Assembly (NCBI GenBank): GCA_963759105.1 | Contig: CAVWXW010000004.1 | Span: 47,963 to 111,962 of the forward strand | DNA from: an uncultured delta proteobacterium | Lineage (GTDB): Bacteria > Myxococcota_A > Polyangia > Haliangiales > Haliangiaceae | DNA length: 64,000 bases | Reading direction: 5' to 3' | In this document: positions 3,741-33,788 of the stretch, piece by piece | Layout of the letters: every line of letters starts with the position of its first letter | Numbering within the stretch: the first letter of the stretch is position 1 | Translations under genes and position numbers: made by a program | Notes under the pieces: generated by a model | The model's input: only the letters and a program-made list of their open reading frames with translations | Told to the model about the DNA's origin: nothing | Databases searched by the model: none

Positions 3741-3889
3741 GGAGCACACGCATCCGGGCAGCCGAGTGCGTCCCTGGTATTTCCTCAAATTATGCAGTCT
3801 CGTCGCGGCAGCGTCCAATCCCCCCTCCTGGCAGTGCCACACTCGAGACACGCGGCGCCAAATGCCCGAGCAGGAGGGGTTCACCGATC

Positions 3890-4816: not shown

Positions 4817-4865
4817 GATACGGGGGGCTCAGCCGCAGCGGAGCGTGATGGGGAGCGGCGCGAGC

Positions 4866-5444
<579 letters not shown>

Positions 5445-5492
5445 CTCTGCCCGGGGATATGCTCCGGGTAGACAATCATATCGCGATGCGAT

Positions 5493-5965
5493 ATGTCTCG
5501 GGCCGCCTTGCCCGTCGACCGGCTGTCCAGCGCAGATTTTCGCTCGCTCGCGGAGTTCCGCTACCAGCTGCGCCTGTTCCTCGCGTTCTCGGAGGAGCAG
5601 GCGCGCGCGGTCGGGCTCAATCCGCAGCAGCACCAGCTCTTGCTCGCGATCCGCGTGTCCGCGCCCGGGGCGCCCACCGTCGGCCACCTGGCGGAGCGGC
5701 TCATCCTCCGCCACCACAGCGTGGTGGGGCTGATCGACCGGCTCGAACAGCGGCAGCTGGTCAGTCGCTCGCGATTGCCGGAGGACCGCCGTCAGGCGCG
5801 CGTGCGGATCACGCGCGCCAGGGGGAGCGGATCCTGCACCGGCTCGCGCTCGCGCACAGGGCCGAGCTCCGCCGCGCGAGGCCTCAGCTGGTGGCCGCTC
5901 TTGCGCGGCTGGCGAGCGGCCGCGCGAGAGCGCCGTCATCGCGAGCGAAACACGGAGGCGCATGA
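5493..5965 (+). CDS. MarR-family transcriptional regulator (one frameshift near 5820)
   Basis: MSRAALPVDRLSSADFRSLAEFRYQLRLFLAFSEEQARAVGLNPQQHQLLLAIRVS...RQARVRITRA, then frame 2 GERILHRLALAHRAELRRARPQLVAALARLA. The stop overlaps the next start (ATGA at 5962). Confidence 0.7.
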
Positions 5966-7640: not shown

Positions 7641-7649
7641 CTCTCCGCC

Positions 7650-10286: not shown

Positions 10287-10300
10287 AAGGTCGGCCGACT

Positions 10301-10350
10301 CCCCCCCCCCGCGCGGGCCCGCCCCCCCCCCCCCCCCCTCCCTCCCCGGA
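10301..10350. repeat. poly-C tracts (C10 and C17; G-runs on the minus strand) in an intergenic region
   Basis: tcccccccccccgcgcgggcccgccccccccccccccccctccctcccc, between the APH-like gene and the ALDH gene. Confidence 0.9.
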
Positions 10351-13021: not shown

Positions 13022-13209
13022 ACTGTCGCGGGCTGACGACGGCGAGACTACCTACCGTCTGCCGGACCCCGCCATCCACGCGCGGCCGTCGTCCCGATCG
13101 GGTCACGGTTCGGTCACAATCTGACCCGGACGGCGGCCTCGGGCGGACACATTCCTGCCACGGCGCAGGAAGTTAGGTGCGCCGGAGCGGCCCTGTCTCA
13201 TCCTGGAGG

Positions 13210-16028: not shown

Positions 16029-16397
16029 TTATCTCACGTCCGTCGACAGGAAGGTCCAGAGACCTGAGCGCCGCGGCCGGTCGTCGAGTGCGTGCCCGGC
16101 CGGCCGCGGCGCCGCGGCCAGGCTGATTACTGCTGCTGCTGCTGCTGCTGGAGCAGCGGTCCGCACAGCGCCTGCTGCCGGCGCTCGACGTTGTTGGGCG
16201 ACTCCATCATCGCCGCCCTGGCGGCCGACCAGGTCGAGGCAGCGCAGGTACGAGTTCGGCTCGTTGGTCTGCTGGCCGGCCCGGACCGTGGCCGACCCGC
16301 CCGGGGTGCTGATGGTCCCCTCGGCCTCGGTCGACCGCGTCTGGCCGCCCGTGACGCGATCGAGGTCGCTCAGGTCGATGCTTTCGAACGTGGTCAT
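16029..16397 (-). CDS. precursor peptide with an N-terminal double-glycine (GG) leader; core region sequence uncertain
   Basis: MTTFESIDLSDLDRVTGG|QTRSTEAEGTISTPGGSATV.... Leader positions -4 V, -7 L, -8 D, -12 I, -15 F and GG at -2/-1 fit the PCAT-cleaved leader consensus. Canonical SD AAGGAG 5 nt upstream of the ATG. An alternate frame ends ...QQALCGPLLQQQQQQQ* (TAA at 16117). Confidence 0.6.
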   Translation of the reverse strand: MTTFESIDLSDLDRVTGGQTRSTEAEGTISTPGGSATVRAGQQTNEPNSYLRCLDLVGRQGGDDGVAQQRRAPAAGAVRTAAPAAAAAAVISLAAAPRPAGHALDDRPRRSGLWTFLSTDVR

Positions 16398-16489: not shown

Positions 16490-17341
16490 TCACTTGCGCG
16501 GAGCCTGCTGCAGGCGGACCTTGCCGACCGAGCCGACGCCGATCGTCTCTCCCTTGATCAGGCGATCGTCGACGTCGGCGTCGGCGACGACGAACTGGAG
16601 CGGCGGCTCCAGGTCGGTCGACACCGTGCGCACGATGGCCTCGAAGGTCGCGCCGCTGGCCGGATCCGTGGCCGCCACCCTGGTCCCCTCCTTGATCAGG
16701 CTGCGGTACTCGCTGTCGACCGCGAACCTGACCCACAGATCACGCGGATCGAACACCCGCGCCACCGGCGTGCCCGGCACCGCGACCTCGCCCTCCTTGA
16801 CCCGGATCATCGAGACCACGCCGTCGATGGGAGCGACCAGCGTGGCGCGGGCCAGGTGCTGCTCGAGCTGCTCGCGCTCGGCCACCGACTGGCGGTACTG
16901 GGCGGCCGAGCTGCTGTAGCTGGCGGACGCGCGGCTGCTGTCGAACCTGGACTGCCGGATGCCCTCGCGGGCCACCGCGCCGCGGCGGTAGAGGCGGCGC
17001 TGCATGCGCATGTCGCGCTTGGACGCGCGGATCTCGACGCCGGCGCGCCCCATCTCGGCGCGGGCCGCGTCCACGGCGGCGACCGCGCCGCTCAGCTGCT
17101 TGCGCACCTGGCTGTCGTCCAGCTTGGCGATCGGCTCGCCGGCGCGCACGCGCTGGCCGGGGTGGACGTAGAGCGCCACCACGCGTCCCTCGAACTCGGA
17201 GGCCACCACCTTCGAGTCGCGAGTGGTGACCACGCCGACGAACTCGAGCGGCGGCGGCGCGGGCCGGCGCGCGGCCGCGGGCGGCAGCGCCGCCGGCGCG
17301 GTGTCGTCGGCGGACGATGTCGGGGAGCCGCACGCGGCCAT
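16490..17341 (-). CDS. HlyD-family membrane-fusion / periplasmic adaptor protein (short, lipoprotein-like N-terminus)
   Basis: MAACGSPTSS...VVTTRDSKVVASEFEGRVVALYVHPGQRVRAGEPIAKLDDSQV...LVAPIDGVVSMIRVKEGEVAVPGTPVARVFDPRDLWVRFAV; biotinyl/lipoyl-like and beta-barrel MFP motifs; 283 aa, intact. Confidence 0.7.
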   Translation of the reverse strand: MAACGSPTSSADDTAPAALPPAAARRPAPPPLEFVGVVTTRDSKVVASEFEGRVVALYVHPGQRVRAGEPIAKLDDSQVRKQLSGAVAAVDAARAEMGRAGVEIRASKRDMRMQRRLYRRGAVAREGIRQSRFDSSRASASYSSSAAQYRQSVAEREQLEQHLARATLVAPIDGVVSMIRVKEGEVAVPGTPVARVFDPRDLWVRFAVDSEYRSLIKEGTRVAATDPASGATFEAIVRTVSTDLEPPLQFVVADADVDDRLIKGETIGVGSVGKVRLQQAPRK

Positions 17342-17377: not shown

Positions 17378-19630
17378 TCATGCGGCGTCCTCCCACTGGC
17401 GCGACCGGCGGTCGGTGGCGACCACCAGCTCGCGGTACGGCCCGTTCCGGCGCATCAGCTCGTCGTGCGAGCCGATCTCGACCAGCTGGCCGCCCACCAT
17501 GACCAGGATGAAGTCCGAGTTCTGGATCGTGGTCAGGCGGTGGGCGATGGTGATGCGGGTGCAGCGCAGGCGCTCGATGTTGGCGATGACCCGCGCCTCG
17601 GTGGCGTTGTCGAGCGCCGAGGTCCCCTCGTCGATGAACATGACCGCCGGCTGGCGCAGGATGGCGCGGGCCAGGGCGATGCGCTGGCGCTGGCCGCCGG
17701 ACAAGGACGCGCCGCCGTCGGCGACCGGCGTGTCGTAGCCCATCGGCATCTCGAGGATGTCGTCGTGCAGGCAGGCGACGCGGGCCGCCGCCATGATGCG
17801 ATCGAGATCGGCATCCGGCCGGGTCAGCGCGATGTTGTCGCGCAGGCTGGCCCCGAACACGTACGGGTGCTGCGGGACGAAGCCGACCTGCCGGCGAACG
17901 CCGCGCACGTCGACATCGGCCAGGCGGCGGCCGTCGTAGAAGACCGACCCGGAGGTCGGCTGGTACAGGCCGGCGATGAGATTCAGCAGCGTGGTCTTGC
18001 CGGAGCCGGACGGGCCCACGATCGCCACCGACGAGCCGGCCGGAATGTCGAGCGACACGCCGTTGACCACGAGCGGCATGTTGTGGGCGTAGCGGAAGCT
18101 GAGATCGCGAGTGGAGATCTCGCCGCGGATCTCGTGGGCGGTGTGGATGGTGTCCGGGTCCTGCTCGGTCGCGGTCTCGAGCACGTCGTCGACGCGGTCG
18201 ATGTGCGGGCGGGCCAGCTGGAGATCGAGCGCGCTCTCGACCAGCTGCGAAAGCGGGCCGAACAGGCTGGTGGCCAGCGAGTTCATGGCCAGCATGGTGC
18301 CGAGCGACATCTCGCCCTTCATGACGGACATGGCGCCGACGGTGAGGAGCAGCGTGGGGGCCAGGGTGGCGATCGCCTGGCGGATGGAGTCGACCCGCGC
18401 GTCGACGACCCCGCGGCGCAGCCGGATGTTGAGCTCGTCGGCATACAGGTTCGACCAGTGCTCGACCGCCTGCTGCTCGACGCCGGAGCACTTGAGCGTC
18501 TCGATGCCCCCCAGGAACTGGACCAGGAAGCTCTGCGACTTGGCCTGGCGTTCGAGGTTCTCCGCCATCAGCCGCATGTACTTGCCGCGCGCCAGCACGT
18601 AGACGAGGATCTCGAGCGTCACCAGCACGACCACGATGATGCCGAGCTTGGCGCTGACGGCGAACACGATGGCGCCGTACAGCAGGACGAAGGTGCCGTC
18701 GAGCAGCGCGGCCAGGCTCTTGGACGTCACCATCTCGCGCACGGTGCCGTTGCTGCCCAGGCGCATCATGAGGTCGCCGTCGGAGCGCTGCTGGAAGAAG
18801 CGGAACGGCAGCTTGACCAGGTGATCGAGGAAGCCGAGCGTCGAGCGCACGTCGAGCACGGTGCGCAGGTGCATGAGCAGGTACGCGCGCATCACCTCGG
18901 AGATGGCGTTGAAGCCGACCATCATGACGACCGCGAGGCCGGCCACCATGAGCAGGTTGTAGTCGGAGCGCGGAACCACCTGATCGACGATGACGCTGGT
19001 GAGCAGCGGCAGCACCAGCGCGAGGGCGCGCAGGAGCAGCGAGATGATCACGATGCGGTCGAACACGCGGCGCTCGGACAGGAGCTCGCGCGCGTAGCGG
19101 CGCAGCCGGCTGAGGTTGCCGGCGCCCGTCTGGCTGCGGAAGTCCGGCGCCGGCGAAAGCTCCAGCGCGACGCCGGTGAAGCTATCGGCGAACTGCGGCA
19201 GCGGGATGTCGCGCACGCCGACGGCCGGGTCGAAGATCCTGACCGCGCCGTTCTTCACGCGATCGAAGACGACGAAGTGATTGAACTCCCAGTGCAGGAT
19301 GCTGCCGCGCGCGAGCAGCGGGAGCTTCTCGATGTCGACCTTGACGCCGCGGCCGATGAGGCCGAGGCGGGTGCCGGCCTCGAGGATGTTGCGCGCGGTG
19401 ACGCCGTCGCGGGCCAGGCCGAGCTCGTCGCGCACGCGCGCCAGCGCCACCGTGCGTCCGTAGTAGCCCAGCACCATGGCCAGGCAGGCCGCGCCGCAGT
19501 CGGTCCACTCCATCTGCTGGACGAAGGGGATCTTGGGCGCGCCGCCGAAGCCGATGCGGCGCAGCGCGGGGAAGCGGCCGGCGATGGCGCCCTGTCCGTT
19601 CGGATCCTGTGCGGGGCTGCTGGTGGTCAA
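17378..19630 (-). CDS. peptidase-C39-domain ABC transporter (PCAT; bacteriocin/peptide processing-and-export ATPase); intact 750 aa
   Basis: N-terminal C39 domain with catalytic Cys (FVQQMEWTDCGAACLAMVLGYYGRT). Six TM segments. Walker A GPSGSGKTTLLNLIAGL. ABC signature LSGGQRQRIALARAIL. Walker B VMFIDEGTSALD. Confidence 0.9.
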   Translation of the reverse strand: MTTSSPAQDPNGQGAIAGRFPALRRIGFGGAPKIPFVQQMEWTDCGAACLAMVLGYYGRTVALARVRDELGLARDGVTARNILEAGTRLGLIGRGVKVDIEKLPLLARGSILHWEFNHFVVFDRVKNGAVRIFDPAVGVRDIPLPQFADSFTGVALELSPAPDFRSQTGAGNLSRLRRYARELLSERRVFDRIVIISLLLRALALVLPLLTSVIVDQVVPRSDYNLLMVAGLAVVMMVGFNAISEVMRAYLLMHLRTVLDVRSTLGFLDHLVKLPFRFFQQRSDGDLMMRLGSNGTVREMVTSKSLAALLDGTFVLLYGAIVFAVSAKLGIIVVVLVTLEILVYVLARGKYMRLMAENLERQAKSQSFLVQFLGGIETLKCSGVEQQAVEHWSNLYADELNIRLRRGVVDARVDSIRQAIATLAPTLLLTVGAMSVMKGEMSLGTMLAMNSLATSLFGPLSQLVESALDLQLARPHIDRVDDVLETATEQDPDTIHTAHEIRGEISTRDLSFRYAHNMPLVVNGVSLDIPAGSSVAIVGPSGSGKTTLLNLIAGLYQPTSGSVFYDGRRLADVDVRGVRRQVGFVPQHPYVFGASLRDNIALTRPDADLDRIMAAARVACLHDDILEMPMGYDTPVADGGASLSGGQRQRIALARAILRQPAVMFIDEGTSALDNATEARVIANIERLRCTRITIAHRLTTIQNSDFILVMVGGQLVEIGSHDELMRRNGPYRELVVATDRRSRQWEDAA

Positions 19631-19642
19631 GGTCGGCTCCTG

Positions 19643-21163
19643 TCAGAAGATCTTCTCGAGGGCAGGGACGAGCGCGACCAGCACGCGCCGCTTGCGCACG
19701 CTGACCTCGGCCTTGGCGGTCATGCCGTCGTGATAGGTGTAGGTCTTGTCGCGGCTCTCGAAGGTCCGCGACGTCAGCCGGGCGCGCACGATGACGACCG
19801 GCCCCTTGAGGTCGAGCGCGTCGGCGATCTTGTCGCCCACGTAGCGGCGCGCCTCCTGCGGCCCGATCACCTCCTGGCCGACCTCGCCGATGCGGATCTT
19901 CTCGTTCGTCTTCTCGTAGCCGGGGATGTTGAACTGCAGGATCATCCCGGGCCGCAGCCGCGGGCGGTCCTGGCCGGGCAGGAGCGCGATCATCGTCGGC
20001 ATGGTGTTGGCGTCGGCCACGGTCAGGATGTAGCTGCCGGCCTCGAGCCGGCTGCCCTCGCGCACGCGCAGGTCGCTCACCACGCCGTCGCGCGGCGCGC
20101 GGATCGAGCGCGCGTCGAGCACCTGCTTGGCCTTCTGCCGGCGCGCGGCGATCGTCGACAGCGTCGACTTGGCCTCCTGGCTGCCCGGGTCGAACAGGAA
20201 CGTGCCGAGCTGGCGCTCGTACTCGATGAGCACCTCGCCCAGCTCGGCCGACTCGGAGTCGTCGTGCAGCTGGACGAGCAGCTCGCCGGCCTTCACCGTC
20301 TGGCCCGGCTGGACGTAGGTCGCCACCACGGTGCCGCCGGCGCGCGCGGTCACCTCGGTCCCCTCGATGCGGACCACCGCGGACCCGGTGCTGTACTGGT
20401 TGACCTTGCCGATGATCCCGTAGAGCAGGCCGGCGGCCAGGCCGATCAGCACCGCCGGGTAGACCCGGTTGATCCAGCGCGGCGACAGATCGAGCAGCGC
20501 GCCGTCGCGGCGCTGCTCGCGGTGCCGCTCGAGCGCCTGCTCGCGGAACAGGGAGTCCTGGGGGCCGACGCGCTCGCCGCGGGCCAGCGCGGCGTGGACC
20601 GCCGAGAGAAGCAGCGGCCCGACCTGGGCGCCGACGGCGGTCAGGACCATGCCCTCGCGCTGGGTGAACGGCGCGTCGCTGTCGGCGCGCACCGCGAGCA
20701 CGACCGCGATCACGATCTCGCCGGCCACGATCGGGTGGGCCAGGATCTTCTCGTGGCCGGTGCCGCCCGGGTTGTCGACCTCGGGCATGTAGACCGGGCA
20801 GCTGGCGGCCGGCTGGGCGCAGATCTGCTGGCGGTGATACACGGCGAGGCTGGCCAGGCTGTCTGCGTCGGCGCCCGCGCTCCACGGCGCGCCGGTCAGC
20901 GGATCTGCCGTCAGGCAATGCACGCGCACGCAGCCGACCAGCTCCGACAGGCCGTGGCCCAGGACGCGCAGCGACGAGGCCAGGTCGCTCTGCAGCGCGA
21001 TGCGGCGCACCAGCGACAGCACCGCGCCCGGATCGTCCAGCGGCGGCAGCGAGCGCAGCGGCGGGCGCTTCGCGGAGCCCGGCACCGGCGGCGGCCCGCT
21101 CTGCGGCGGTGCTGCCCGCGGGTTGACGGCTGTGTCGGAGTCGTTGACCACCCGGTTGTCCAT
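19643..21163 (-). CDS. HlyD-family secretion protein with an N-terminal GAF-like domain
   Basis: C-terminal MFP: TM YPAVLIGLAAGLLYGIIG, ...VVRIEGTEVTARAGGTVVATYVQPGQTVKAGELLVQL...RAPRDGVVSDLRVREGSRLEAGSYILTV. The N-terminal about 200 aa (LASLAVYHRQQICAQPAASCPVYMPEV...EIVIAVVLAVRADSDAPFTQREGMVLTAVGAQVG) resembles GAF. Confidence 0.7.
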   Translation of the reverse strand: MDNRVVNDSDTAVNPRAAPPQSGPPPVPGSAKRPPLRSLPPLDDPGAVLSLVRRIALQSDLASSLRVLGHGLSELVGCVRVHCLTADPLTGAPWSAGADADSLASLAVYHRQQICAQPAASCPVYMPEVDNPGGTGHEKILAHPIVAGEIVIAVVLAVRADSDAPFTQREGMVLTAVGAQVGPLLLSAVHAALARGERVGPQDSLFREQALERHREQRRDGALLDLSPRWINRVYPAVLIGLAAGLLYGIIGKVNQYSTGSAVVRIEGTEVTARAGGTVVATYVQPGQTVKAGELLVQLHDDSESAELGEVLIEYERQLGTFLFDPGSQEAKSTLSTIAARRQKAKQVLDARSIRAPRDGVVSDLRVREGSRLEAGSYILTVADANTMPTMIALLPGQDRPRLRPGMILQFNIPGYEKTNEKIRIGEVGQEVIGPQEARRYVGDKIADALDLKGPVVIVRARLTSRTFESRDKTYTYHDGMTAKAEVSVRKRRVLVALVPALEKIF

Positions 21164-21305
21164 GGAGGCCGGTTCTGCAACCGAAGGGCCATGCGCGCCG
21201 GCCGCGGAATCGGCGCTTGCGCCGCCCGACGGCGCCCGCCGGCCGTCCGCATGCGGAGCGGGACCCCACGTGCCGCCGAGCGCGGTCGGCGATCCGGCCC
21301 GACGA

Positions 21306-22916
21306 CTAATCGAGCACCTCGATGTCGTAGCGCTTCAGGATGTCGCCGGTCAGCGACTGCAGCACGGCCACCGACTGGTGGTAGTCGGCGATGGCGCGCA
21401 CGCGCGACAGCCGGGCCTCGTCGAGGTCGTCCTGGCGGTCGAACAGCTGCTGGCTGGTCGACTTCCCGACGCGGAACAGCGCGCGCTCGGAGGTGAGGCT
21501 GCCCTTGGCCAGCTCGATCGCCTTTGTCGCGACCTGGGCCCGCTTCTGCGCCGCGCGGATCTGGTGCACGGTCAGCACGATGGCGGACGCGATCTCGCGG
21601 CGGAGCTCCGCGCGCTCGATGCTGACGTCCTGGTGGCGCAGCAGGGCGGCGTCGCGGCGCCCGCGCGCCGTGTTGGCTCCGATGTCGATCGAGAAGACCA
21701 GCGCCGCGGTGGCGTTGACGTTGGCGCCGCGGTCCAGGGCGCGGAACGCCTCGTCGACGTTGCTGCCGGCCGCGGTGGCGGCGGCCGAGACGGTGAAGTC
21801 GAGCCGGGGCCGCACGCCGTCGCGCGCGACCCGCACCTCGATCTTCGAGTCCTCGTCGTCGAGCTCGATCGCGGCGAGGGCGTAGTTGCGGGCCAGGCCG
21901 CGCTCGACCAGCTTTCCCACCGCGTAGGTCTCGGCGCCGGCGCCCGGCAGATCGGCCGGCCACAGCGCGATCGCGCCGCCGCCGATCTCGAGGCCGGCCA
22001 GCTTGCGCAGCTCGAGTGCCTGCTCCTCCAGCACCAGCTCGGCGCGCAGCTGCGCCTCCTCGCGGACCGCCATCGTGTACTCGGCCAGCTTGAGGTCACC
22101 GGTCGGGCGGCCGCCCTCTTTCACGACCTGCTCGGTCTCCTTGTGCAGCTTGCGCACCGCCACCAGCGAGGAGCGCTTCACCTCGAGGGCCAGGGCGGCG
22201 TGGGCAAGCTCCCAGTAGCCGCGCACGACGTCGCGGGTCAGCTCGCCGGCGGCCACCTTGGCGCGCAGCGCGGCGGCCGAGGTCCGGACAGCCGCCTGCT
22301 CGCGATCGGCGCGCGCGATCGGGCGGCCGAAGCCGCGCAGGAGCGAGTGGTTGAGGACCAGCCGACCCGATGCCTGGCTGACCTGGGAGCTGGACTGCTT
22401 CGGCTCGGCGCCGCTCATGTCCAGGTTCTCGACCAGGCTGGTCTCCTGCGAGCGGGCGGCGTTCGCCTCGAGTCGCAGCTGGCCGCCGGTGGGCAGGTCG
22501 CGGATTAGCGCGGCCCTGCCGCCGACGCGCTCCTGCTCGACGACCTGCACCGGCTGGCCCGGGACGCGATCTCTCGTCACCCGCGCCCCGTCGATGGCCA
22601 GCTCGAGCTGCCAGTCGTCGCGGCCGCGCACCGCCCGCTCCTCGGCCCGCGCGATGGCGGCGCTGGTGCGCGCGCGGGCCAGGCCAGGCGAGCGCAGGAC
22701 GGTGACGTCGATCAGCTGGTCGACTCCGATCCGCTCGACCGGCTCCGCCTGCGGCGCGGCCTCCTGGGTCTGCGGCGCCTCCTGCGGGCCCTGCGCCCCC
22801 GGTTGTCGCCTGGCGCGCCGCCTGTCGGCGGCCAGCGGCGGCGCGGCGACGCAGACCGCGGTGACGACCAGCGCCGCCGAGCACCATCTCGCCTCGCGGA
22901 TGCTGCTCAGTGGCAC
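21306..22916 (-). CDS. TolC-family outer-membrane efflux protein
   Basis: 536 aa from a GTG start (overlaps the upstream gene by 10 nt). Signal peptide PLSSIREARWCSAALVVTAVCVAAPPLAA. Two repeated coiled-coil / beta-barrel halves typical of OEP family. Ends ...QSLTGDILKRYDIEVLD*. Confidence 0.65.
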   Translation of the reverse strand: MPLSSIREARWCSAALVVTAVCVAAPPLAADRRRARRQPGAQGPQEAPQTQEAAPQAEPVERIGVDQLIDVTVLRSPGLARARTSAAIARAEERAVRGRDDWQLELAIDGARVTRDRVPGQPVQVVEQERVGGRAALIRDLPTGGQLRLEANAARSQETSLVENLDMSGAEPKQSSSQVSQASGRLVLNHSLLRGFGRPIARADREQAAVRTSAAALRAKVAAGELTRDVVRGYWELAHAALALEVKRSSLVAVRKLHKETEQVVKEGGRPTGDLKLAEYTMAVREEAQLRAELVLEEQALELRKLAGLEIGGGAIALWPADLPGAGAETYAVGKLVERGLARNYALAAIELDDEDSKIEVRVARDGVRPRLDFTVSAAATAAGSNVDEAFRALDRGANVNATAALVFSIDIGANTARGRRDAALLRHQDVSIERAELRREIASAIVLTVHQIRAAQKRAQVATKAIELAKGSLTSERALFRVGKSTSQQLFDRQDDLDEARLSRVRAIADYHQSVAVLQSLTGDILKRYDIEVLD

Positions 22917-23935
22917 GGATCCCACGCCGTGCCGTTGTCGCCGATGTCGATGAGATTGCCGATCTCCTCGATGTAGAGGTCGAGGTCCTCCGCGCGACAC
23001 TGCGACAGCGACGTGTTGTTGATCGCGATGACCGAGCCGCCGACGGAATACAGATTCACGGCCAGCTCGTAGATGTCGGTGAGGGTCGTGTTGCCCTCGA
23101 CGGCCAGGTTGCCGCCGACGTGGTTGAACGTCGCGGTGAAGCCGTTGAGGTTCTGCAGCGCGCCGTTGCGCTCGATGCTCAGGTTGCCGCCGACGGTCTG
23201 GAGGTCGCTGAACGCCTTGAGCTCGGTCATGTCCGGGTTGTCGGCGATGCGGACCTCGCCCTGCACGCTGACCACGTTGAGCTGCAGCGCGCGCAGGCCG
23301 GTGTTGCCGGCGACGACGAGCTCGCCGGCCGACTCGATGCGCCGGACGGTCTGCAGATTTGTGAGGCCGCTGTTGTTCTCGACCCGGAACGAGCCCTCGA
23401 CCCGCTCGAGCGTCTCGAGGTCCTGGAGGCCCTCGAGGGCGCTGTTGTCGCGGATCGACAGGCCGCCGGTGCCGACGTCGCGCAGGGCGCGCAGGCCGGC
23501 GAGGCTGACCAGCTGCGGGTTCTTGCTGATCGTCACCCGCGCGACGGTGTCGGTGCGGTCGAGCCCGTAGACGTCGCCCAGCATCGGGTTGTTGTCGATC
23601 TCGACGTGCTGCAGCACCTTGACCCGGTCGAGCCCGGCGAAGCTGAGCAGCTGCGGGTTGTCCTTGACCCGCAGCACGTTGGCCTGGCGCAGGTAGAACA
23701 GCGGCTCGAGGTCGGCCAGGTCGGAGCCGACCACCTCGACGTCGCCCGAGACGGTGAAGCACTTCTGCGGCAGGGAGCGGGCGTCGCTCGCGCTGCGCAC
23801 GATGATGTTGGCGTTGAGGGTCTCGCAGTCCTCGTCGATGTCCGTGGGCTGCTGGTAGCCGACGTCGGTGGGCATGCAGCCGAACAACCCGACGGCGGCG
23901 ATCGCGATGGCGGAGAGGTGGATCGTGGGGCGCAT
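22907..23935 (-). CDS. lipoprotein with leucine-rich-repeat-like (receptor L-domain-like) repeats
   Basis: MRPTIHLSAIAIAAVGLFGC lipobox. Repeating units ...NPQLxSxxGLxxLxxV..LxIxxNxxL about every 24 aa. 343 aa. Confidence 0.6.
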   Translation of the reverse strand: MRPTIHLSAIAIAAVGLFGCMPTDVGYQQPTDIDEDCETLNANIIVRSASDARSLPQKCFTVSGDVEVVGSDLADLEPLFYLRQANVLRVKDNPQLLSFAGLDRVKVLQHVEIDNNPMLGDVYGLDRTDTVARVTISKNPQLVSLAGLRALRDVGTGGLSIRDNSALEGLQDLETLERVEGSFRVENNSGLTNLQTVRRIESAGELVVAGNTGLRALQLNVVSVQGEVRIADNPDMTELKAFSDLQTVGGNLSIERNGALQNLNGFTATFNHVGGNLAVEGNTTLTDIYELAVNLYSVGGSVIAINNTSLSQCRAEDLDLYIEEIGNLIDIGDNGTAWDPCH

Positions 23936-23949
23936 GAACGCCCCAAAGA

Positions 23950-23964
23950 GCACGGCCTGTGCCA
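23950..23964 (-). promoter_or_regulatory. putative sigma54 (-24/-12) promoter for the lipoprotein-TolC-HlyD-PCAT operon
   Basis: Minus strand reads TGGCAC-AGGCC-GTGC (GG-N10-GC spacing) about 15 nt upstream of the lipoprotein ATG. The -12 element is GTGC, not the consensus TTGC. Confidence 0.45.
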
Positions 23965-24126: not shown

Positions 24127-25464
<1,338 letters not shown>

Positions 25465-25633: not shown

Positions 25634-26611
<978 letters not shown>

Positions 26612-26613
26612 GA

Positions 26614-26656
26614 GACGAGAAAACCATCGGCGACCGGGCCGCATGGGTCGGCCCGG
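26614..26656. terminator. bidirectional rho-independent terminator between the kinase gene (+) and precursor peptide 2 (-)
   Basis: Hairpin CCGGGCCG-catgggt-CGGCCCGG (26634-26656), flanked by an A-run on the plus strand (gagaaaacc) and a T-run on the minus strand. Confidence 0.6.
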
Positions 26657-26671
26657 CCGCCGATCGTGGTT

Positions 26672-26887
26672 CTAGCGGCGCCTTCGCCCGCCGCGCGGGT
26701 CCTGAAACATCTGCATCATCATCATCATCATGAGCATGTCGTTGCTGTTGTCCTGAGGAGGAGGGCATGGGCACTGCATGTTGAAGAAGTTCCTGTCTCC
26801 GCGGCGTCCACCACCGCATCCACCAGCAACGTCGTCGAGCTCCTCGAGCGCAAACTCTGGCATCTTGTTGTCGTCGTCCATGGGCAT
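26672..26887 (-). CDS. precursor peptide 2 with a double-glycine leader and a Met/Cys-rich core
   Basis: MPMDDDNKMPEFALEELDDVAGG|CGGGRRGDRNFFNMQCPCPPPQDNSNDMLMMMMMMQMFQDPRGGRRRR*. Leader positions -4 V, -7 L, -8 E, -12 F, -15 M. SD AAGGAAGG upstream. Terminator downstream. 36 nt downstream of the beta-barrel A gene. Confidence 0.65.
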   Translation of the reverse strand: MPMDDDNKMPEFALEELDDVAGGCGGGRRGDRNFFNMQCPCPPPQDNSNDMLMMMMMMQMFQDPRGGRRRR

Positions 26888-26923
26888 CCTTCCTTGTTTG
26901 TTCGGTCCTGGGTTCCAGACAGG

Positions 26924-28270
26924 TCAGAAACGAAAGACGGCCTGGCCGGTCGCGCCGATGAAGGCGTCCACGGCCCCGATGACGTCCTGATCGAGGTCCT
27001 CGTCGAGCGCGACGGCCAGGTCGCCCGAGCCCTCGAAGTCGAGGGCGAAGCGCGTGTAGGCGGCGGCGACGCGGACCAGGATGCGCTCGAGCAGCTCGAC
27101 CTCGAGCCCCACCTCTCCTCTCAGCCCGTAGCTGCCGGCGGCGCCGAAGGCCGCCTGGTCGGTGATACCGGACGTGGCGACCGTGTGGAGGTAGCTGCCG
27201 GCTCCGAAGACCGTCGCGCGGCCGAGCTCGTAGCGGACACCGCCGCCCGCGTCGATGAAGGCGTAGCGCGCGTCCGGCACCATCAGGCCGGGCGGCCGGA
27301 TGCCGACCTCGTAGCGCAGCTCGCTGTAGCCGAGCTGGAAGGTGGGCACCCAGCGCTTCTTGACGCGCAGGCGGCCGCGCAGGGCCGCGGCCCACTGCAT
27401 CTGGGTGACCGGCAGCTCGACCCCCTCGCTGCCGCCGAGTGACATGCCGGCGTTGATCGACCTGTCGATCGCCACCGCCAGCCCGATGGCCGGCTCACCC
27501 GGGGTGCTGGCCTCGGCCTCGACGTGCAGGCCCGGCGACGGGTTGGCCGACAGCGAGGCGTCGCCGACCAGGCCCGGCTCCTGCGAGAAGGCGAGCTTGC
27601 GCGCGGTGGCCGAGAGGCCGACCCCGGCCTCGAAGACCAGCGGGAAGCGGCGCTCGGGGGCCGCCTTGCCCCGCTTGCGAGCGGCCTCGGGGCGCGCCTT
27701 GCTGACGTCGCGGTCGGCGATGTCGACCCGGCCCTGCGCCTGCACGTCCGCGCGGTGCTGCGGCTGCGGCTGCGGTTCCGGAACCGCCTGGCCGGGCGGG
27801 CCGTCGTGGGTGCGGTCCGGATCGATCCACACAAGTAGATCTCCCAGCAGCCGCGCGATGCGCGCCCGCGCGGCCGGCGTCATCTCGGCGGTGGCCAGCG
27901 GCACCAGCACCGCCCCGACGCTCTCGCCGTCACCGGCGCGCAGCACCGACAGGCTCAGCGCGTAGGCCTCGCTGGAGGCCGCGACCTCGCCGACGACGAC
28001 AGCGTCGGCGCCGGCCATGCGGGCCATGGCCAGCGCCGCGGCCGGCTCGCTGCCGTCGGTCCCGGCCAGCTCGCGGGCCTGCTCGAGCCGCGCGGCCGGC
28101 ACCACCGCATAGCGGGCGCCGACCACGTCCACCACGACCGCGCGCGCCTCGCTGGCGACCACCTCGGGGCCGGCGAAGGGTGCGACGGCGATGAGCCTCG
28201 TCTCCGCCCGCGCGGGGGCGGCGGCGGTGAGGACAGCGAGTACGACGAAGCACGCGAGCAGCCTGGACAT
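26924..28270 (-). CDS. outer-membrane beta-barrel protein with an N-terminal periplasmic domain (paralog A)
   Basis: Signal peptide MSRLLACFVVLAVLTAAAPARA. N-terminal domain IAVAPFAGPEV...AGADAVVVGEV. Alternating beta-strand pattern. Ends ...GATGQAVFRF* (OMP-type terminal Phe). 448 aa. Confidence 0.6.
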   Translation of the reverse strand: MSRLLACFVVLAVLTAAAPARAETRLIAVAPFAGPEVVASEARAVVVDVVGARYAVVPAARLEQARELAGTDGSEPAAALAMARMAGADAVVVGEVAASSEAYALSLSVLRAGDGESVGAVLVPLATAEMTPAARARIARLLGDLLVWIDPDRTHDGPPGQAVPEPQPQPQHRADVQAQGRVDIADRDVSKARPEAARKRGKAAPERRFPLVFEAGVGLSATARKLAFSQEPGLVGDASLSANPSPGLHVEAEASTPGEPAIGLAVAIDRSINAGMSLGGSEGVELPVTQMQWAAALRGRLRVKKRWVPTFQLGYSELRYEVGIRPPGLMVPDARYAFIDAGGGVRYELGRATVFGAGSYLHTVATSGITDQAAFGAAGSYGLRGEVGLEVELLERILVRVAAAYTRFALDFEGSGDLAVALDEDLDQDVIGAVDAFIGATGQAVFRF

Positions 28271-28283
28271 TGGTCCCTCCACC

Positions 28284-29708
28284 TCAGAGTCGGAAGCCGA
28301 GCATGACGACGCCGCCGACGTAGGTGTCGGTGGCTCCACTGACGTCAACGTCCGAGCTCTCGTCGAGCCCGGTCGCCCACGCGCCGTCGCCGTTGAACGC
28401 GAGGATGATGCGCTGATAGGTCGCGGCGACGCGCACGAAGGTCGTGTCGCCGGCGTCGATCTCGAGGCCGACCTCGCCGCCGAAGCCGTGAAAGCGCGAG
28501 CTGCCGAACGCGGTGGCCGCCGTGATGCCGCCAGCGCTGAGCACGTGCAGGTACCACAGGTCGGCGCTGATCGAGAGGCGGTCGTCGCGCAGGCTGAGCC
28601 GCGCGCCGCCGCCGACATCGGCGTAGGCGTAGCGCGAGTCGGGGATGAGCAGCCCGTTGGGCCGGTTCGAGATGGCGAAGCCGAGCTGGTGATAGCCGGC
28701 GCCGCCGCGCACGTTCACGCGCTTGTGCACGGCGCGCCGGATCATCAGCCGGGCGCCGATGTGCTGGAGCGAGATGCCGAGCTGCTTTGTCTGCCCGCCG
28801 GCGGGAAAGGAGACCGAGGCGCCGATCGACCGCTGGTACACGAGGTCGGCGGACAGGCCGAGCGGGTTGACGTCGACGGTGCCGGACACGGCGACGCCGC
28901 CCGACGGGCTGCCCGACATGCTGAGCGGGCGCTCGTCCTCGGCCAGGTCGATCTGGTGCGCGAACTGGAGCTGGCGCGCGATGGCGGCCACGCCGACCGC
29001 GGCGCGCACCTGCATGGCCGGCGGCCGGCGCTTCGCCGCCCTGGCTCTGGCCCGGTCGCGCTGCTCGGCGACCGACCACTTCTCGACCGAGGCCTCCTGC
29101 TTCTGCTGGGCGGCGGTGAGCGACGCGCGCGCGGCGCCGGGGGCCTCGTTGCCGATCTGGCCGGGCTGGGTGATCACGGCCGCGGGGGCGGCCTGATCCA
29201 CGCCGGCCGCGACGGCGCCGTCGGTCTCGCCGTTGAGCGGCTCGGTCCAGTCGATGAGGTCGACCAGCTCGTCGATGATCGCCTCGCGGGTCGCTTCCGA
29301 AACGCGCTTGCCGCGGGCGTTGACGCTGAAGCGGTCCATCACGCGGCCGGTGCGCCCCTCGCGCACCGCGATGGTCAGCTTGCCGCCCTGCACCTCCCCC
29401 TCGATGATCGCGTCCGCGCCTACCTTCCTGGCCACCTGGGCCACGGACTTCATCGACTCCTTCGTGACGTTGAGGCGGCGGCGCGCGAGCCTGTACCTGC
29501 CGTACGGCAGGACCTCGTACAGGTCGGAGACGATCTCGAGGATCACGTCGTGCATGGCCTTCGACGTGGGGGCCGGCCCCACGAAGTCGGCGACCACGAC
29601 GCGCCGCTCCTGCTCCGCGCGCGCCCGGGGCGGCGCGGCGACCAGGACGGCAAACGCCGCCGCGAGCGCGGCGATGCGAGTGCAGGGCACGTGGATGTCT
29701 CGACTCAT
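28284..29708 (-). CDS. outer-membrane beta-barrel protein with an N-terminal periplasmic domain (paralog B)
   Basis: MSRDIHVPCTRIAALAAAFAVLVAAPPRARA. VVVADFVGPAP...VGADAIIEGEV. Ends ...GGVVMLGFRL*. Clearly paralogous to 26924..28270. Confidence 0.6.
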   Translation of the reverse strand: MSRDIHVPCTRIAALAAAFAVLVAAPPRARAEQERRVVVADFVGPAPTSKAMHDVILEIVSDLYEVLPYGRYRLARRRLNVTKESMKSVAQVARKVGADAIIEGEVQGGKLTIAVREGRTGRVMDRFSVNARGKRVSEATREAIIDELVDLIDWTEPLNGETDGAVAAGVDQAAPAAVITQPGQIGNEAPGAARASLTAAQQKQEASVEKWSVAEQRDRARARAAKRRPPAMQVRAAVGVAAIARQLQFAHQIDLAEDERPLSMSGSPSGGVAVSGTVDVNPLGLSADLVYQRSIGASVSFPAGGQTKQLGISLQHIGARLMIRRAVHKRVNVRGGAGYHQLGFAISNRPNGLLIPDSRYAYADVGGGARLSLRDDRLSISADLWYLHVLSAGGITAATAFGSSRFHGFGGEVGLEIDAGDTTFVRVAATYQRIILAFNGDGAWATGLDESSDVDVSGATDTYVGGVVMLGFRL

Positions 29709-29726: not shown

Positions 29727-29744
29727 GTGCAACGGCGATGCCAC
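29727..29744 (-). promoter_or_regulatory. near-consensus sigma54 promoter upstream of the beta-barrel B / A / peptide 2 transcription unit
   Basis: Minus strand reads GTGGCAT-CGCCG-TTGCAC (TGGCAT-N5-TTGCA, with GG-N10-GC spacing), about 20 nt upstream of the ATG at 29708. Confidence 0.55.
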
Positions 29745-29947
29745 GCAGCATCACCGCGCGATCGCGAGCGCGGCCCGGTGCTGTCGCTGTACACGGGTAG
29801 CGCGGCGCGGGGGAAAATTCCCGTGGGCCCAGACCGCTGTCGCGCCAGGGCAAAACGAAAGCGCCGCCGCCCTGACGGACGACGGCGCGGAGTTGCGCTG
29901 GAGAGCGGATGGACGGTGGATGGAGAGCGGATGGAGAGCGGACGCGC

Positions 29948-30661
29948 TTACTGGCCGGCGACGTCGATGAGCAGGTGCACGCTGCCGGCGTCGATCTGGT
30001 TCAGGTCGGTCGGATTGTCGTCTCCGCAGACCGAGGCCTTGATGTAGCCCGGCGCAGTCTGGCCGAGGCTGTTGGCTCCGATGACGAAGCGGTGGCCGCC
30101 GTTCTCGCCGTCCGGGACGCGGACCTCGACCGCCAGCTTGGTCCCGGCCGGGACCATGGCGTCGATCGGGAACTCCACCACGCTGGCGAGCGTGTCGGCG
30201 ACGGTCTGGCTGGCTGTCGCCAGCGTCGTCAGGTCGCCGTTCTGGATGTCTCCGGTGACGGTGTGGAGCTCGATCTCGACCGGCTGTCCCTGGCCGTTGC
30301 CGGACTGGGCCCGCTCCACGCCCACATCGACCCGCGTGACGTGGAAGCCGGATGCGAGGCCAGCGGTCGCGAGATCGAAGACGCGGTACCAGCTGTTGTC
30401 GAAGTGGATGTCCTGCTCATCTGCGCACACGATCGACGCGTCCGGTTCGATGAGCTCGGACGTCGTCTGGGACAGGACCCGGTTGCCGCTCGGCTGTGCA
30501 TCGGGCCGCGGCCCGGCATCCGCCTCCGGCTCGTCTTCGGTGTCGTCCGGCGGCGGAGTGTAGACGGAGGCGTCGGGATCCGCGCCCGCCGGTCCCGCAG
30601 CCGGCGGCGCCGGAAGCCCGCACCCGAGAAGAGCGAGGGGAATCAGCGCGGAGAGGTTCAT
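29948..30661 (-). CDS. lipoprotein of unknown function
   Basis: MNLSALIPLALLGCG lipobox, then a Pro/Asp/Glu-rich linker and a Cys-containing domain (IVCADEQ...ASVCGDDNPTD). 237 aa. Confidence 0.55.
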   Translation of the reverse strand: MNLSALIPLALLGCGLPAPPAAGPAGADPDASVYTPPPDDTEDEPEADAGPRPDAQPSGNRVLSQTTSELIEPDASIVCADEQDIHFDNSWYRVFDLATAGLASGFHVTRVDVGVERAQSGNGQGQPVEIELHTVTGDIQNGDLTTLATASQTVADTLASVVEFPIDAMVPAGTKLAVEVRVPDGENGGHRFVIGANSLGQTAPGYIKASVCGDDNPTDLNQIDAGSVHLLIDVAGQ

Positions 30662-30912: not shown

Positions 30913-31167
30913 CTACTTGGTGGGCTCCGCCGGCTTCTCCTTGTCCTTCGACTTGTCGGCCGGCGCCTCGGTGCCGTCCTTGGCCTTCGACTTGTCCTTG
31001 TCCTTGGCCTTGGCGTCTTCCTTGGCCTTCGACTTGTCCTTGTCCTTGGCCTTCTCGTCCTGGGACGGAGCGGGCTTGTCGGCCGGCGGGGTCGACTGGG
31101 CGCTGGCCGCGAGCGGCGCAACCGAGAGGGCGGCAGCGAGGAGCGAAACAGACAGCAGCTTCTTCAT
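30913..31167 (-). CDS. small secreted Lys/Asp-rich repetitive protein
   Basis: MKKLLSVSLLAAALSVAPLAASA signal peptide. ...EKAKDKDKSKAKEDAKAKDKDKSKAKDG... encoded by a ~39-bp tandem DNA repeat. Confidence 0.5.
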   Translation of the reverse strand: MKKLLSVSLLAAALSVAPLAASAQSTPPADKPAPSQDEKAKDKDKSKAKEDAKAKDKDKSKAKDGTEAPADKSKDKEKPAEPTK

Positions 31168-31312
31168 CGACGGCTCTCCTTTGGGTTGTGGTGCGGCGGG
31201 CACGTTAGCCCGAGGTCGGAGACCAAGTGTTCTTCAGCGGCGCGGTGAGCCATGTACAGGGCCGGGTTTCTGGCCCGCTGTGCCTGCGGTCACGAACACG
31301 GCGTCGATCTCG

Positions 31313-31397
31313 CGGAAGGCAAGGGATTCGAACCCTCGAGGCGACGTGGTCGCCCACCCGGCTTCCAACCGGGCTCCTCACCATTCGGATACCTTCC
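31313..31397 (-). tRNA. tRNA-Ser (anticodon GGA), class II with a long variable arm
   Basis: GGAAGGTATCCGAATGGTGAGGAGCCCGGTTGGAAGCCGGGTGGGCGACCACGTCGCCTCGAGGGTTCGAATCCCTTGCCTTCCG. Acceptor GGAAGG/CCTTCC. Anticodon loop TTGGAAG. T-loop GGTTCGAATCC. Confidence 0.8.
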
Positions 31398-33037: not shown

Positions 33038-33197
33038 GCTGGTCGTCGTGCGCGTCTGGATCCGCGGCCACCGGTTTCAGGCGGCGGTCGCAGCACCAGC
33101 GTGGAGCCGATCACCGGACACGCCGCGGAGACCGCGTGCAGCAGTCCGCGCCGTGCGGCGTCGCGCTGGCGCCCAGACTTTCATCGCGCGCAACGGT

Positions 33198-33270
33198 CGG
33201 TACGGGGGGATTCGAACCCACCACTTGTCCGGGTTTGGGCCGGATGCCTCTTCCAGTTGGGCCACGTACC
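33198..33270 (-). tRNA. tRNA-like gene, anticodon uncertain (CAA or CCA region)
   Basis: GGTACGTGGCCCAACTGGAAGAGGCATCCGGCCCAAACCCGGACAAGTGGTGGGTTCGAATCCCCCCGTACC. Has a T-loop GGTTCGAATCC and a GGTACG/CGTACC acceptor. Confidence 0.4.
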
Positions 33271-33275
33271 GCATC

Positions 33276-33346
33276 GGCACCACCGAGCAGGATCGAACTG
33301 CTTCACCGAGGTTCGGAGCCCCGGGCCGCGATCCACGCGCGGTGGC
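33276..33346 (-). tRNA. tRNA-Arg (anticodon CCG)-like
   Basis: GCCACCGCGCGTGGATCGCGGCCCGGGGCTCCGAACCTCGGTGAAGCAGTTCGATCCTGCTCGGTGGTGCC. Anticodon stem-loop CGGGG-CTCCGAA-CCTCG. T-arm GCAGTTCGATCCTGC. The D-arm is short, possibly because of indels. Confidence 0.5.
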
Positions 33347-33424
33347 AGAGAGACCGCCCCGGGTAACGCTCCCGGTTCTTCGAGGGTTGCAGCCCCGAGC
33401 CAGCCCTTGCTGGTGACGGCCGAG

Positions 33425-33499
33425 TGGTGGAAGCGAAGGGAATCGAACCCTCATCGCTCGGATGCGAGCCGAGTGCTCTCCCGTTGAGCTACACCCCCA
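33425..33499 (-). tRNA. tRNA-Ala (anticodon CGC)-like, with an encoded CCA
   Basis: GGGGGTGTAGCTCAACGGGAGAGCACTCGGCTCGCATCCGAGCGATGAGGGTTCGATTCCCTTCGCTTCCACCA. The D-arm, the anticodon loop CTCGCAT and the T-arm are good. The acceptor strands do not pair, which may be a sequence error. Confidence 0.45.
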
Positions 33500-33508
33500 C
33501 GAGTCGGT

Positions 33509-33597
33509 TGGCGGAAGCGACAGGAGTTGAACCTGCAAGGCCGCAAAGCTCGTCCGAGTTCGAATCGGGTGCCATCACCACGTTGGCTTGCGCTTCC
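33509..33597 (-). tRNA. tRNA-Ser (anticodon CGA), class II
   Basis: GGAAGCGCAAGCCAACGTGGTGATGGCACCCGATTCGAACTCGGACGAGCTTTGCGGCCTTGCAGGTTCAACTCCTGTCGCTTCCGCCA. Acceptor GGAAGCG/CGCTTCC. Long variable arm. Encoded CCA. Confidence 0.75.
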
Positions 33598-33717
33598 ACG
33601 TCACTGCTATTCGAATGTCATAGATCTCTGTGGTTAACTGCCGCGCCGCTCACCCTCGCCCGTCGGGGCACGCGTGTCGCGAACGCAGCTGTCTCGAAGG
33701 ACACACGTGTGGCGTCG

Positions 33718-33788
33718 TGGGGGCAGAAGGACTTGAACCCTCGTGCAAGCGCTTTACAGGCGCGGCAACCAGCCCGTGGTGTGCCCCC
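33718..33788 (-). tRNA. tRNA-Tyr (anticodon GTA)-like, lacking the long variable arm
   Basis: GGGGGCACACCACGGGCTGGTTGCCGCGCCTGTAAAGCGCTTGCACGAGGGTTCAAGTCCTTCTGCCCCCA. Acceptor GGGGGCA/TGCCCCC. Anticodon loop CTGTAAA. T-loop GGTTCAAGTCC. Confidence 0.45.

Follow-up and report, generated by a model that had tools for sequence, protein, structure and literature searches.

The stretch of DNA analysed here, which we refer to as the window, is a 64-kb segment (72% GC) of contig CAVWXW010000004.1 from an uncultured delta proteobacterium, and the subject of this report is a small minus-strand gene within it that encodes a methionine-rich peptide with a double-glycine (GG) leader. We conclude, with a probability of roughly 0.55, that this gene encodes a precursor from which a small cationic peptide is secreted, unmodified except perhaps for disulfide bonds, and that the peptide resembles the class II microcins and is antagonistic and membrane-active; the claims as to its export, cleavage and activity have an in silico basis throughout. 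The gene belongs to a previously undescribed family, lies directly downstream of two outer-membrane barrel genes, and is encoded 7.0 kb from the gene for a peptidase-containing ATP-binding cassette transporter (PCAT). The peptide gene and its immediate flanks are organized as follows.

26672..26881, minus strand: peptide gene, 69 amino acids plus stop; an upstream alternative ATG at 26887 would give 71 amino acids.
26819..26881, minus strand: putative double-glycine leader MDDDNKMPEFALEELDDVAGG (21 residues), with predicted cleavage after G21.
26675..26818, minus strand: predicted mature core, 48 residues, 5.66 kDa, net charge +4, isoelectric point (pI) 10.3.
26705..26737, minus strand: Met-rich hydrophobic block MLMMMMMMQMF, a helix in the AlphaFold (AF2) model, its length kept across the family.
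26675..26686, minus strand: C-terminal RRRR tail; an Arg/Lys tail is present in 19 of 19 family members.
26888..26895, minus strand: putative Shine-Dalgarno (SD) sequence AAGGAAGG, with purine-rich counterparts upstream of the homologues.
26616..26664, minus strand: predicted intrinsic terminator, a 16-bp stem (26664..26626, 13 GC pairs) followed by GGTTTTCT.

The open reading frame (ORF) spanning 26672-26887 on the minus strand, with the product MPMDDDNKMPEFALEELDDVAGGCGGGRRGDRNFFNMQCPCPPPQDNSNDMLMMMMMMQMFQDPRGGRRRR, was singled out in a sequence-only reading of the window as a GG leader followed by a 48-residue core with nine Met, three Cys and a run of six Met, and retranslation matches this description exactly. 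The leader positions assigned there are also correct, with hydrophobic residues at -4 (V), -7 (L), -12 (F) and -15 (M) and Glu at -8, and the 48 residues after the GG comprise 9 Met, 8 Arg, 4 Asp and 3 Cys among others. The reported frame and stop stand, and the start, placed at 26887, is probably at 26881 instead. The proposed SD is found where expected; it abuts the first ATG (26887) and is 6 nt ahead of the second (26881). The position of the second ATG is a start codon in every homologue, the first is missing in locus L007, and gene callers place the start at the second (P0001, 69 residues). From the SD spacing, the conservation of the second ATG and the absence of the first in L007, translation most likely begins at 26881 to give a 69-residue product (MDDDNK...). 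The hairpin and T-run terminator noted earlier is likewise present directly after the peptide stop, with a folding energy of -42.6 kcal/mol and z = -4.9. The run of six Met corresponds to a perfect (CAT)6 repeat on the plus strand (26714-26731) and is the only Met run longer than three in the six frames of the window, against a chance expectation of about 1e-7; Met runs are extremely rare in proteins. An AlphaFold model of the peptide is of low confidence overall (predicted local distance difference test, pLDDT, 59), and its sole confident helix is the Met block (residues 48-62 of the 71-residue form, pLDDT about 80).

Codon alignments with the homologues show that changes concentrate at the third position (for example, 10, 4 and 19 changes at positions 1, 2 and 3 between the window and L006), Nei-Gojobori dN/dS values range from 0.13 to 0.41 in leader and core alike, and the start, SD and stop are conserved among homologues. 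Judged by these patterns, the peptide ORF is a genuine coding gene under purifying selection. A sequencing artefact in the Met run and a lack of conservation of the ORF had both been named as outcomes that would undo the earlier proposal; instead, the ORF is conserved, and every close relative, like the independent assemblies and metagenomes, has a Met block of identical length, which excludes both a sequencing artefact and an unstable microsatellite.

The search for homologous short peptides with Met runs, which had been suggested as a check, uncovered a family of which we aligned 19 members from at least 9 loci. Database searching returned an identical protein and four relatives at 67-79% identity, additional copies are encoded downstream of barrel-A homologues in a deltaproteobacterial metagenome-assembled genome (MAG) and a Kofleriaceae MAG (L006 and L007), and more distant members include P0006, P0007, P0008 and P0010, with further ones in L135 and L136. 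The family is rare in current databases, with about 15 distinct peptides and 13 barrel A (barA) homologues among billions of proteins, all of them from metagenomes or MAGs. A scan of metagenome contigs by protein alignment found no family member, and although the DNA pattern (ATG)5-N12-42-(MGN)3 occurs at 120 or more loci, a hidden Markov model assigns none of the matches listed to the family.

Members share a four-part plan consisting of the GG leader, a basic Gly-rich core start, an Asn/Gln/Gly-rich stretch, and a Met block with a linker and RRRR. First, the GG is invariant and the hydrophobic pattern of the leader is retained in 19 of 19 members. Secondly, the start of the core is variable, basic and Gly-rich, often of the form C/G-G-x-R-R, and the Asn/Gln/Gly-rich stretch that follows terminates in N-N-D/N. 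Thirdly, a hydrophobic block of about 11 residues is dominated by Met (e.g. LMMMMMMQMF, LIMMMMMQMF, LMMFMMMQMMM, MMMMMMMMTML and MMMMLMMTLL) and is followed by a short polar linker and the RRRR C-terminus, with at least three Arg/Lys at or beside the C-terminus in all 19 members. The block tolerates L, I, F, V and one polar residue, so that the family trait is a Met-dominated hydrophobic block and not the pure run of six Met emphasized at the outset. The cores are 39-51 residues long with a net charge of +3 to +9 and a pI above 9, and contain 3-9 Met and 0-3 Cys; two paralogues in L008 have His in place of Cys (VVHHGG and VIHHNHG). Neither Cys nor a Ser/Thr-Cys pattern forms a conserved column in the 19-member alignment. 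Tandem copies number from two to seven across the loci, and their N-terminal cores are variable. In L013, three intact tandem family peptides are followed at 897-1149 by an apparent fourth, frame-shifted copy; its fragments ...GCSNNGGN... and ...KKMMMIMTLLKDRNSD... occupy different frames, and it is therefore probably a decaying paralogue.

Pfam and NCBIfam scans of the peptide and 15 family members gave nothing above threshold, with sub-threshold matches confined to the leader (L_biotic_typeA, CTB bacteriocin and ComC; E = 0.005-0.1), and an Rfam scan of 26300-27300 gave no match. Full-text literature searches found no description of methionine-rich double-glycine peptides, and those combining Myxococcus with double-glycine returned general papers only. 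A GG-leader cargo of an exporter composed of a PCAT, a membrane fusion protein (MFP) and an outer-membrane factor is known as a kind. Within the libraries and literature searched, three aspects are undescribed: a cargo combining a poly-Met helix with a poly-Arg tail, its fixed pairing with a lipoprotein and two barrels that carry TolB-N/PelC-like domains, and the control of such a cargo by sigma54. To our knowledge, GG-leader/PCAT cargo outside Enterobacterales and Gram-positive bacteria is barely characterised.

The components of a candidate export route for the peptide are encoded in an operon that includes the following genes.

22907..23935, minus strand: leucine-rich repeat (LRR)/receptor-L-domain lipoprotein, whose gene opens the exporter operon.
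21306..22925, minus strand: TolC-like outer-membrane efflux protein (OEP; PF02321), 48% identical to the L008 OEP.
19643..21163, minus strand: HlyD-family MFP, 57.5% identical to the L008 HlyD.
17378..19630, minus strand: PCAT, an ABC exporter with a C39 peptidase domain at its N-terminus, 77% identical to the L008 PCAT.
16490-17341, minus strand: second adaptor-like lipoprotein of the exporter operon.
16029-16397, minus strand: a further GG-leader ORF of 122 codons, referred to here as peptide 1, at the end of the PCAT operon.

The C39 domain of the PCAT (PF03412, E = 5e-32) has an intact catalytic Cys motif (DCGAAC) and His motif (HFVV...DP). Its best NCBIfam match is TIGR03796, at 607 bits and under the cutoff of 853, and the HlyD protein has a weak match to TIGR03794. 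The most informative comparison is with L008, a distant contig of 60% GC in which the whole module lies inside 12 kb, with PCAT and HlyD on one strand and OEP, lipoprotein, barrel B (barB), barA and the peptides on the other. The two loci share 77% identity in PCAT, 57.5% in HlyD, 48% in OEP, 40% in barB, 34% in barA and 28% in the lipoprotein. The L008 array encodes one 90-residue Met-rich GG peptide and six family peptides, and no GG-leader genes other than Met-rich ones were seen within the 20 kb examined. Because Met-rich GG peptides travel with an orthologous PCAT in L008, they would be the cargo of this PCAT, and the window PCAT is very probably the cognate exporter of the peptide. The earlier statement that the peptide has no transporter of its own is misleading in this light, in that the family peptides look like the main cargo of the window PCAT; the compact L008 module lends strong support to the accompanying suggestion that the peptide may be exported by this PCAT, 7 kb away.

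Two features of the L008 array deserve mention. Its first gene (9670-9942, plus strand) encodes the 90-residue GG-leader peptide, which has a short MMMM block, a Gly/Met/Pro-rich tail (MMGGMPGAASSPAGGMPMPGAQ) and a weak leader match to the ComC family (E = 0.005), and which may represent a different cargo class of the same exporter. The array is also the lowest-GC kilobase of the contig, at 53% compared to about 60%. The window peptide gene (26675-26881) has an overall GC content of 59% and a third-position GC content (GC3) of 72% with Met codons excluded, compared to GC3 values of 95-97% in its neighbours; candidate causes of the low GC are mRNA structure, expression level and origin.

Peptide 1 of the window, MTTFESIDLSDLDRVTGG|QTRSTEAEG..., is 122 residues long, and its C-terminal half is rich in Ala, Pro and Arg and resembles high-GC read-through. 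No counterpart is present in the compact L008 module; a 122-residue ORF beside the L008 HlyD gene was considered as such and rejected, as BLASTP shows no similarity between the two.

Upstream of the peptide gene are the two barrel genes and a lipoprotein gene, and the remaining elements of the region are putative regulators and promoters.

26924..28270, minus strand: barrel A (modelled), the gene before the peptide gene.
28284..29708, minus strand: barrel B, a paralogue of barrel A with a weak OMP_b-brl match.
29948..30661, minus strand: conserved lipoprotein gene (237 residues) upstream of barrel B, with its own putative terminator at 29861-29888.
24127..25464, plus strand: FHA-domain sigma54 enhancer-binding protein (EBP), syntenic in L001, L002, L006, L007, L135 and L136.
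25634..26611, plus strand: Ser/Thr protein kinase, convergent with the peptide gene and on the same strand as the adjoining FHA-EBP gene.
29728..29743, minus strand: predicted sigma54 (-24/-12) promoter TGGCATCGCCGTTGCA, upstream of barrel B.
23949..23964, minus strand: sigma54-like site (one mismatch) preceding the LRR lipoprotein gene; the L007 counterpart is at 10292-10307.
21176..21191, minus strand: sigma54-like site (one mismatch) preceding the HlyD gene; the L007 counterpart is at 13082-13097.

Barrel A is predicted to have a signal peptide, a TolB-N/LpoB/PelC-like alpha/beta periplasmic domain, a disordered linker of about 55 residues, and a C-terminal outer-membrane beta-barrel of about 10 main strands that ends ...FRF (model pLDDT 73). 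The residues that barA and barB share with each other and with their distant orthologs are concentrated in loops modelled as extracellular, with the motifs RPxxLxVPDxxY, GIT(D) and the acidic F-xGxGxxAxxLDxDxxxDVxGAxDxY. Barrel B is 40% identical to a 466-residue L008 protein, and the window lipoprotein is 28% identical to a 269-residue L008 protein (E = 1e-16). The barA and barB pairs of the window and L008 are reciprocal best matches, indicating that the barrel duplication predates the divergence of the two loci.

The peptide gene is directly downstream of barA in every locus for which upstream DNA was examined, these being the window, L002, L003, L004, L006, L007, L008, L012, L135, L136 and two JGI contigs, with either one or several peptide genes in this position. 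The gene order of the window is preserved in L006 and L007, and the same order without the kinase is seen in L135, L136 and a 31-kb JGI contig, with three tandem peptide genes in L135 and two in the JGI contig. An OEP, HlyD or PCAT gene is within 10 kb in the window, L001, L006, L007, L008, L135, L136 and both JGI contigs, and the PCAT gene is complete or nearly so in the window, L008, L135 and both JGI contigs. In L004 the peptide gene is paired with a barA gene (83% identical), followed by CDF and CzcCBA heavy-metal efflux genes (1574-7708), and the retention of this pair without an exporter in the 8.8 kb downstream points to barA-peptide as the tightest unit. In L012 a gene for a DsbA-family thiol-disulfide oxidoreductase (1613-2161) is directly downstream of the peptide gene, which fits disulfide formation outside the cytoplasm. 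Relative to L007, the identities are about 60% for barA and barB, 61% for the peptide, 53% for the lipoprotein and 45% for the LRR protein, compared to 88% for the EBP, 80% for the kinase and 73% for the OEP; the surface components thus evolve faster than the regulators and exporter. Taken together, these gene orders show that the peptide family, the two barrels, the lipoprotein and the exporter form a conserved module that extends from a 72% GC Kofleriaceae-like genome to an unrelated 60% GC contig, with seven components (exporter trio, lipoprotein, two outer-membrane barrels and peptides) serving a simple cargo.

The gap from the barA stop to the peptide gene is 36 nt when measured to the first ATG, as reported previously, and 42 nt to the second, and it contains no terminator. 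The peptide gene is predicted to be the last gene of a sigma54-dependent operon, barB-barA-peptide. The sequence TGGCATCGCCGTTGCA is the only perfect match to the sigma54 consensus in the window, and a perfect match upstream of barB recurs in L006, L007, L008, L009, L135 and L136. These observations agree with the earlier proposal that the peptide gene is co-transcribed from this promoter. A perfect match also precedes the L008 lipoprotein gene; in total, L008 contains five sigma54 sites compared to 1.1 expected, a number reached in no shuffle, and one of the five precedes the HlyD/PCAT operon. From the positional conservation of the sigma54 sites in the window, L007 and L008, the peptide, barrels and exporter appear to form one sigma54 regulon. 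The adjacent FHA-EBP presumably drives this regulon in most of the Kofleriaceae-like loci, and from their domain content the kinase could control the FHA-EBP through phospho-Thr binding; the two would probably switch on the peptide, barrels and exporter jointly via three sigma54 promoters. No kinase or activator gene is present within 10 kb on either side in L008.

The sequence of events that we propose for a microcin-like peptide begins with cleavage by the PCAT after G21 and export of the 48-residue core across both membranes, with the HlyD adaptor and the TolC-like duct completing the route. The RRRR tail would then bind anionic lipid or lipopolysaccharide head groups, and the flexible, uniformly hydrophobic Met helix would bury in the membrane interface; at about 11 residues this helix would be too short to span a bilayer alone. 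We infer that the Met helix, polar linker and RRRR constitute the conserved functional unit of the core. The barrels may serve in protection of the producer, or in surface docking via their conserved acidic extracellular loops. Bacteriocins and other PCAT cargo typically show tandem multiplication with variable cores, and the tandem copies seen here, with their variable N-terminal cores, fit an antagonistic peptide.

Class II microcins are unmodified peptides of less than 10 kDa with a GG signal that are exported by a PCAT with an MFP and TolC (PMC12219008). The window encodes a 5.66-kDa core with a GG signal and PCAT, MFP and TolC-like genes, modifying enzymes are absent from all the loci, and the leader pattern, the catalytic C39 exporter, the MFP and the outer-membrane factor expected of a GG-leader cargo are all present. 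The known members (MccV/ColV, MccL and MccN, with CvaB-CvaA-TolC exporters) share with this system a Gram-negative host, small Gly-rich peptides that are gene-encoded and unmodified, a double-glycine signal of 15-25 residues, and a PCAT with a HlyD-type adaptor and a TolC-like duct; the window leader FALEELDDVAGG also resembles the ColV leader LTLNELDSVSGG. In contrast, the window system is found in Myxococcota and not in Enterobacterales, it is coupled to two barrels and under putative sigma54 control, and its Met helix with an RRRR tail is unlike any described microcin.

Several observations weigh against the proposed microcin-like role. In validated class II microcin systems the peptide gene has next to it a gene for a small inner-membrane immunity protein of 216 residues or fewer with transmembrane helices (PMC12219008). 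No small inner-membrane immunity ORF is present between barA and the terminator in the window, or after the peptide arrays of L008, L135 and L136. The family cores, at 39-51 residues, are shorter than those of known class II microcins, which are roughly 60-90 residues long, and none of the curated leader or bacteriocin models gives a match above threshold. Fast-evolving toxins are usually less conserved than the Met and Arg parts are here, a pattern that points to a conserved partner, and the peptide gene is obligatorily coupled to two barrel genes. As to export, L004 has no exporter in the 8.8 kb downstream of its barA-peptide pair, and peptide 1 also ends the window PCAT operon, so that the assignment of cargo is not exclusive. 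If the peptide does prove antibacterial, it would offer a new microcin-like scaffold from predatory bacteria, synthesisable at about 45 residues, and the poly-Met peptide provides a natural test of Met versus Leu with regard to side-chain flexibility, reversible oxidation and soft-metal binding.

The lack of an immunity gene, the conservation of the Met and Arg parts, and the barrel coupling fit at least as well with a non-antibiotic peptide on the producer's own surface, whose RRRR docks on the acidic loops of barA and barB and which functions in a matrix, in adhesion or as an autocrine signal; overall we consider this alternative possible but doubtful. Its attraction is that the coupling to barA/barB is invariant even where no exporter is adjacent (L004 and L012), and that the Met block and Arg tail are kept across very distant members, suggesting a conserved partner. 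The barrel motifs, including the acidic LDxDxxxDVxGAxDxY, fall in predicted extracellular loops, Asn, Gln and Gly are abundant in the core, and the FHA-EBP and Ser/Thr kinase are regulators of a developmental type. There is also precedent in EbfG1-4 of Synechococcus elongatus, tandem small GG-motif proteins that are secreted by the PCAT PteB and enable biofilm formation (PMC4997328). Like the window peptides, the EbfG proteins are small, GG-motif, tandemly encoded and without a known domain in their mature parts, and their role is non-antibiotic. However, they have no sequence similarity to the family, their mature parts, of 6-7 kDa, are rich in neither Met nor Arg, and neither outer-membrane barrel partners nor sigma54 control has been described for them. 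Moreover, contact between the peptide and the barrels is putative, the loop topology derives from a model with a pLDDT of 73, and a role of the barrels in immunity or uptake is equally conceivable. A more specific form, which we regard as no less tentative, is that the peptides are dedicated ligands of barA/barB, presenting an oxidation-sensitive poly-Met helix at the membrane interface as part of a sigma54- and kinase-controlled cell-surface module of the Myxococcota. Docking on the barrels would represent a new surface system, and dedicated ligands could have roles in display at the surface, in the recognition of kin or prey, or in redox sensing.

The Met content, which reaches 19-21% of the core (about 7% in two His-containing paralogues), raises the further, speculative idea, put forward in part in the sequence-only reading, of a metal-binding or redox-buffering peptide, in which Met thioethers together with Cys or His bind Cu(I)/Ag(I), or the peptide acts as an extracellular oxidant sink. 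The two L008 paralogues with His at Cys positions, the CDF and CzcCBA efflux genes adjoining the L004 gene, and the DsbA gene after the peptide in L012 are in keeping with such a function. Likenesses to SilE/PcoE, CusF and the Met-rich loops of CopA/PcoA include a very high Met content, His or Cys in some members, and a disordered peptide with a helix-forming Met segment. We nonetheless think it unlikely. Known Cu(I)/Ag(I) sites (CusF, SilE, PcoE) use MxxM, HxxM or MxM spacing, whereas the Met residues here are contiguous and helical; these positions accept L, I, F and V, so that hydrophobicity rather than sulfur seems to be selected, and the count of Cys and His ranges between 0 and 4. In the window, L006, L007, L008, L135 and L136 the surroundings of the module contain no cop, cus or sil genes, metal-efflux neighbours occur in L004 only, export is via a GG leader and PCAT as opposed to Sec, and the conservation of RRRR would be left unexplained.

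Thioether-forming chemistry, raised in the sequence-only reading, would make the peptide the precursor of a ribosomally synthesised and post-translationally modified peptide (RiPP), with an enzyme encoded elsewhere turning its Cys residues into thioethers or other cross-links. The GG leader, the three Cys of the window core and a weak leader-only match to the type-A lantibiotic family (E = 0.06-0.1) are compatible with this, but no dehydratase, cyclase, radical-SAM, YcaO, MNIO or P450 gene is present at any locus, L008 included, as judged from Pfam scans of every neighbouring gene and Pfam lists for 8 loci. With a Cys count that varies from 0 to 3 and no conserved Ser/Thr-Cys pattern, we consider a RiPP highly improbable. 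The NHLP/N11P systems provide the best PCAT model (TIGR03796, NHLM_micro_ABC1) and share multiple tandem precursors and GG/GA cleavage sites; they differ in that the window PCAT is under the model cutoff, the family peptides have no long nitrile-hydratase-like or Nif11-like leader domain, and modifying enzymes are absent from the peptide-family loci.

Least probable of all is that there is no peptide gene here, the perfect (CAT)6 repeat being a microsatellite artefact in a window with an obvious homopolymer artefact elsewhere (4869-5442), the coding part of a plus-strand ORF of 258 residues (26666-27442) that translates it as His6, or the Met codons of an attenuator leader: equal block lengths in independent assemblies reject the first, the second is rejected by the codon-position pattern, since the third positions at which substitutions concentrate in the minus frame are first positions of the antisense frame (with dN/dS well below 1, and start, SD and stop kept), and the third is rejected because a gene that is last in its operon, with a single strong terminator after it and a convergent kinase gene beyond, cannot attenuate anything downstream.

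Two other interpretations of the product were considered and rejected. Reading AGG|C as a lipobox fails as there is no hydrophobic signal peptide. Nor does the product fit a MYXO-CTERM-type sorting signal, which consists of a Sec signal peptide and a C-terminal motif with a transmembrane helix of about 20 residues and a basic cluster; the peptide has an acidic N-terminus, no signal peptide and a hydrophobic block of only about 11 residues, and the NCBIfam search made for it gave no match at E values up to 10.

We note some additional features of the window. The homopolymers at 4869-5442 (T15, G~70, a 66-nt unique stretch, G~290, A119 and G20) are almost certainly an assembly or sequencing artefact arising from poly-G no-signal reads. 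Between the stop of the module lipoprotein gene and its terminator is an 11-nt tandem repeat, TGGAGAGCGGA, present in four copies (29899-29942). Upstream of the same gene, a minus-strand ORF (30913-31167) encodes an 84-residue secreted protein with a signal peptide and Lys/Asp/Ala-rich KDKDKSKAK repeats, coded by a 24-nt tandem repeat (30976-31054). The minus strand also carries tRNA genes within a few kb upstream of the module, namely tRNA-Ser(GGA) at 31312-31397 and a group of five (Leu-CAA, Arg-CCG, Ala-CGC, Ser-CGA and Tyr-GTA) at 33195-33788.

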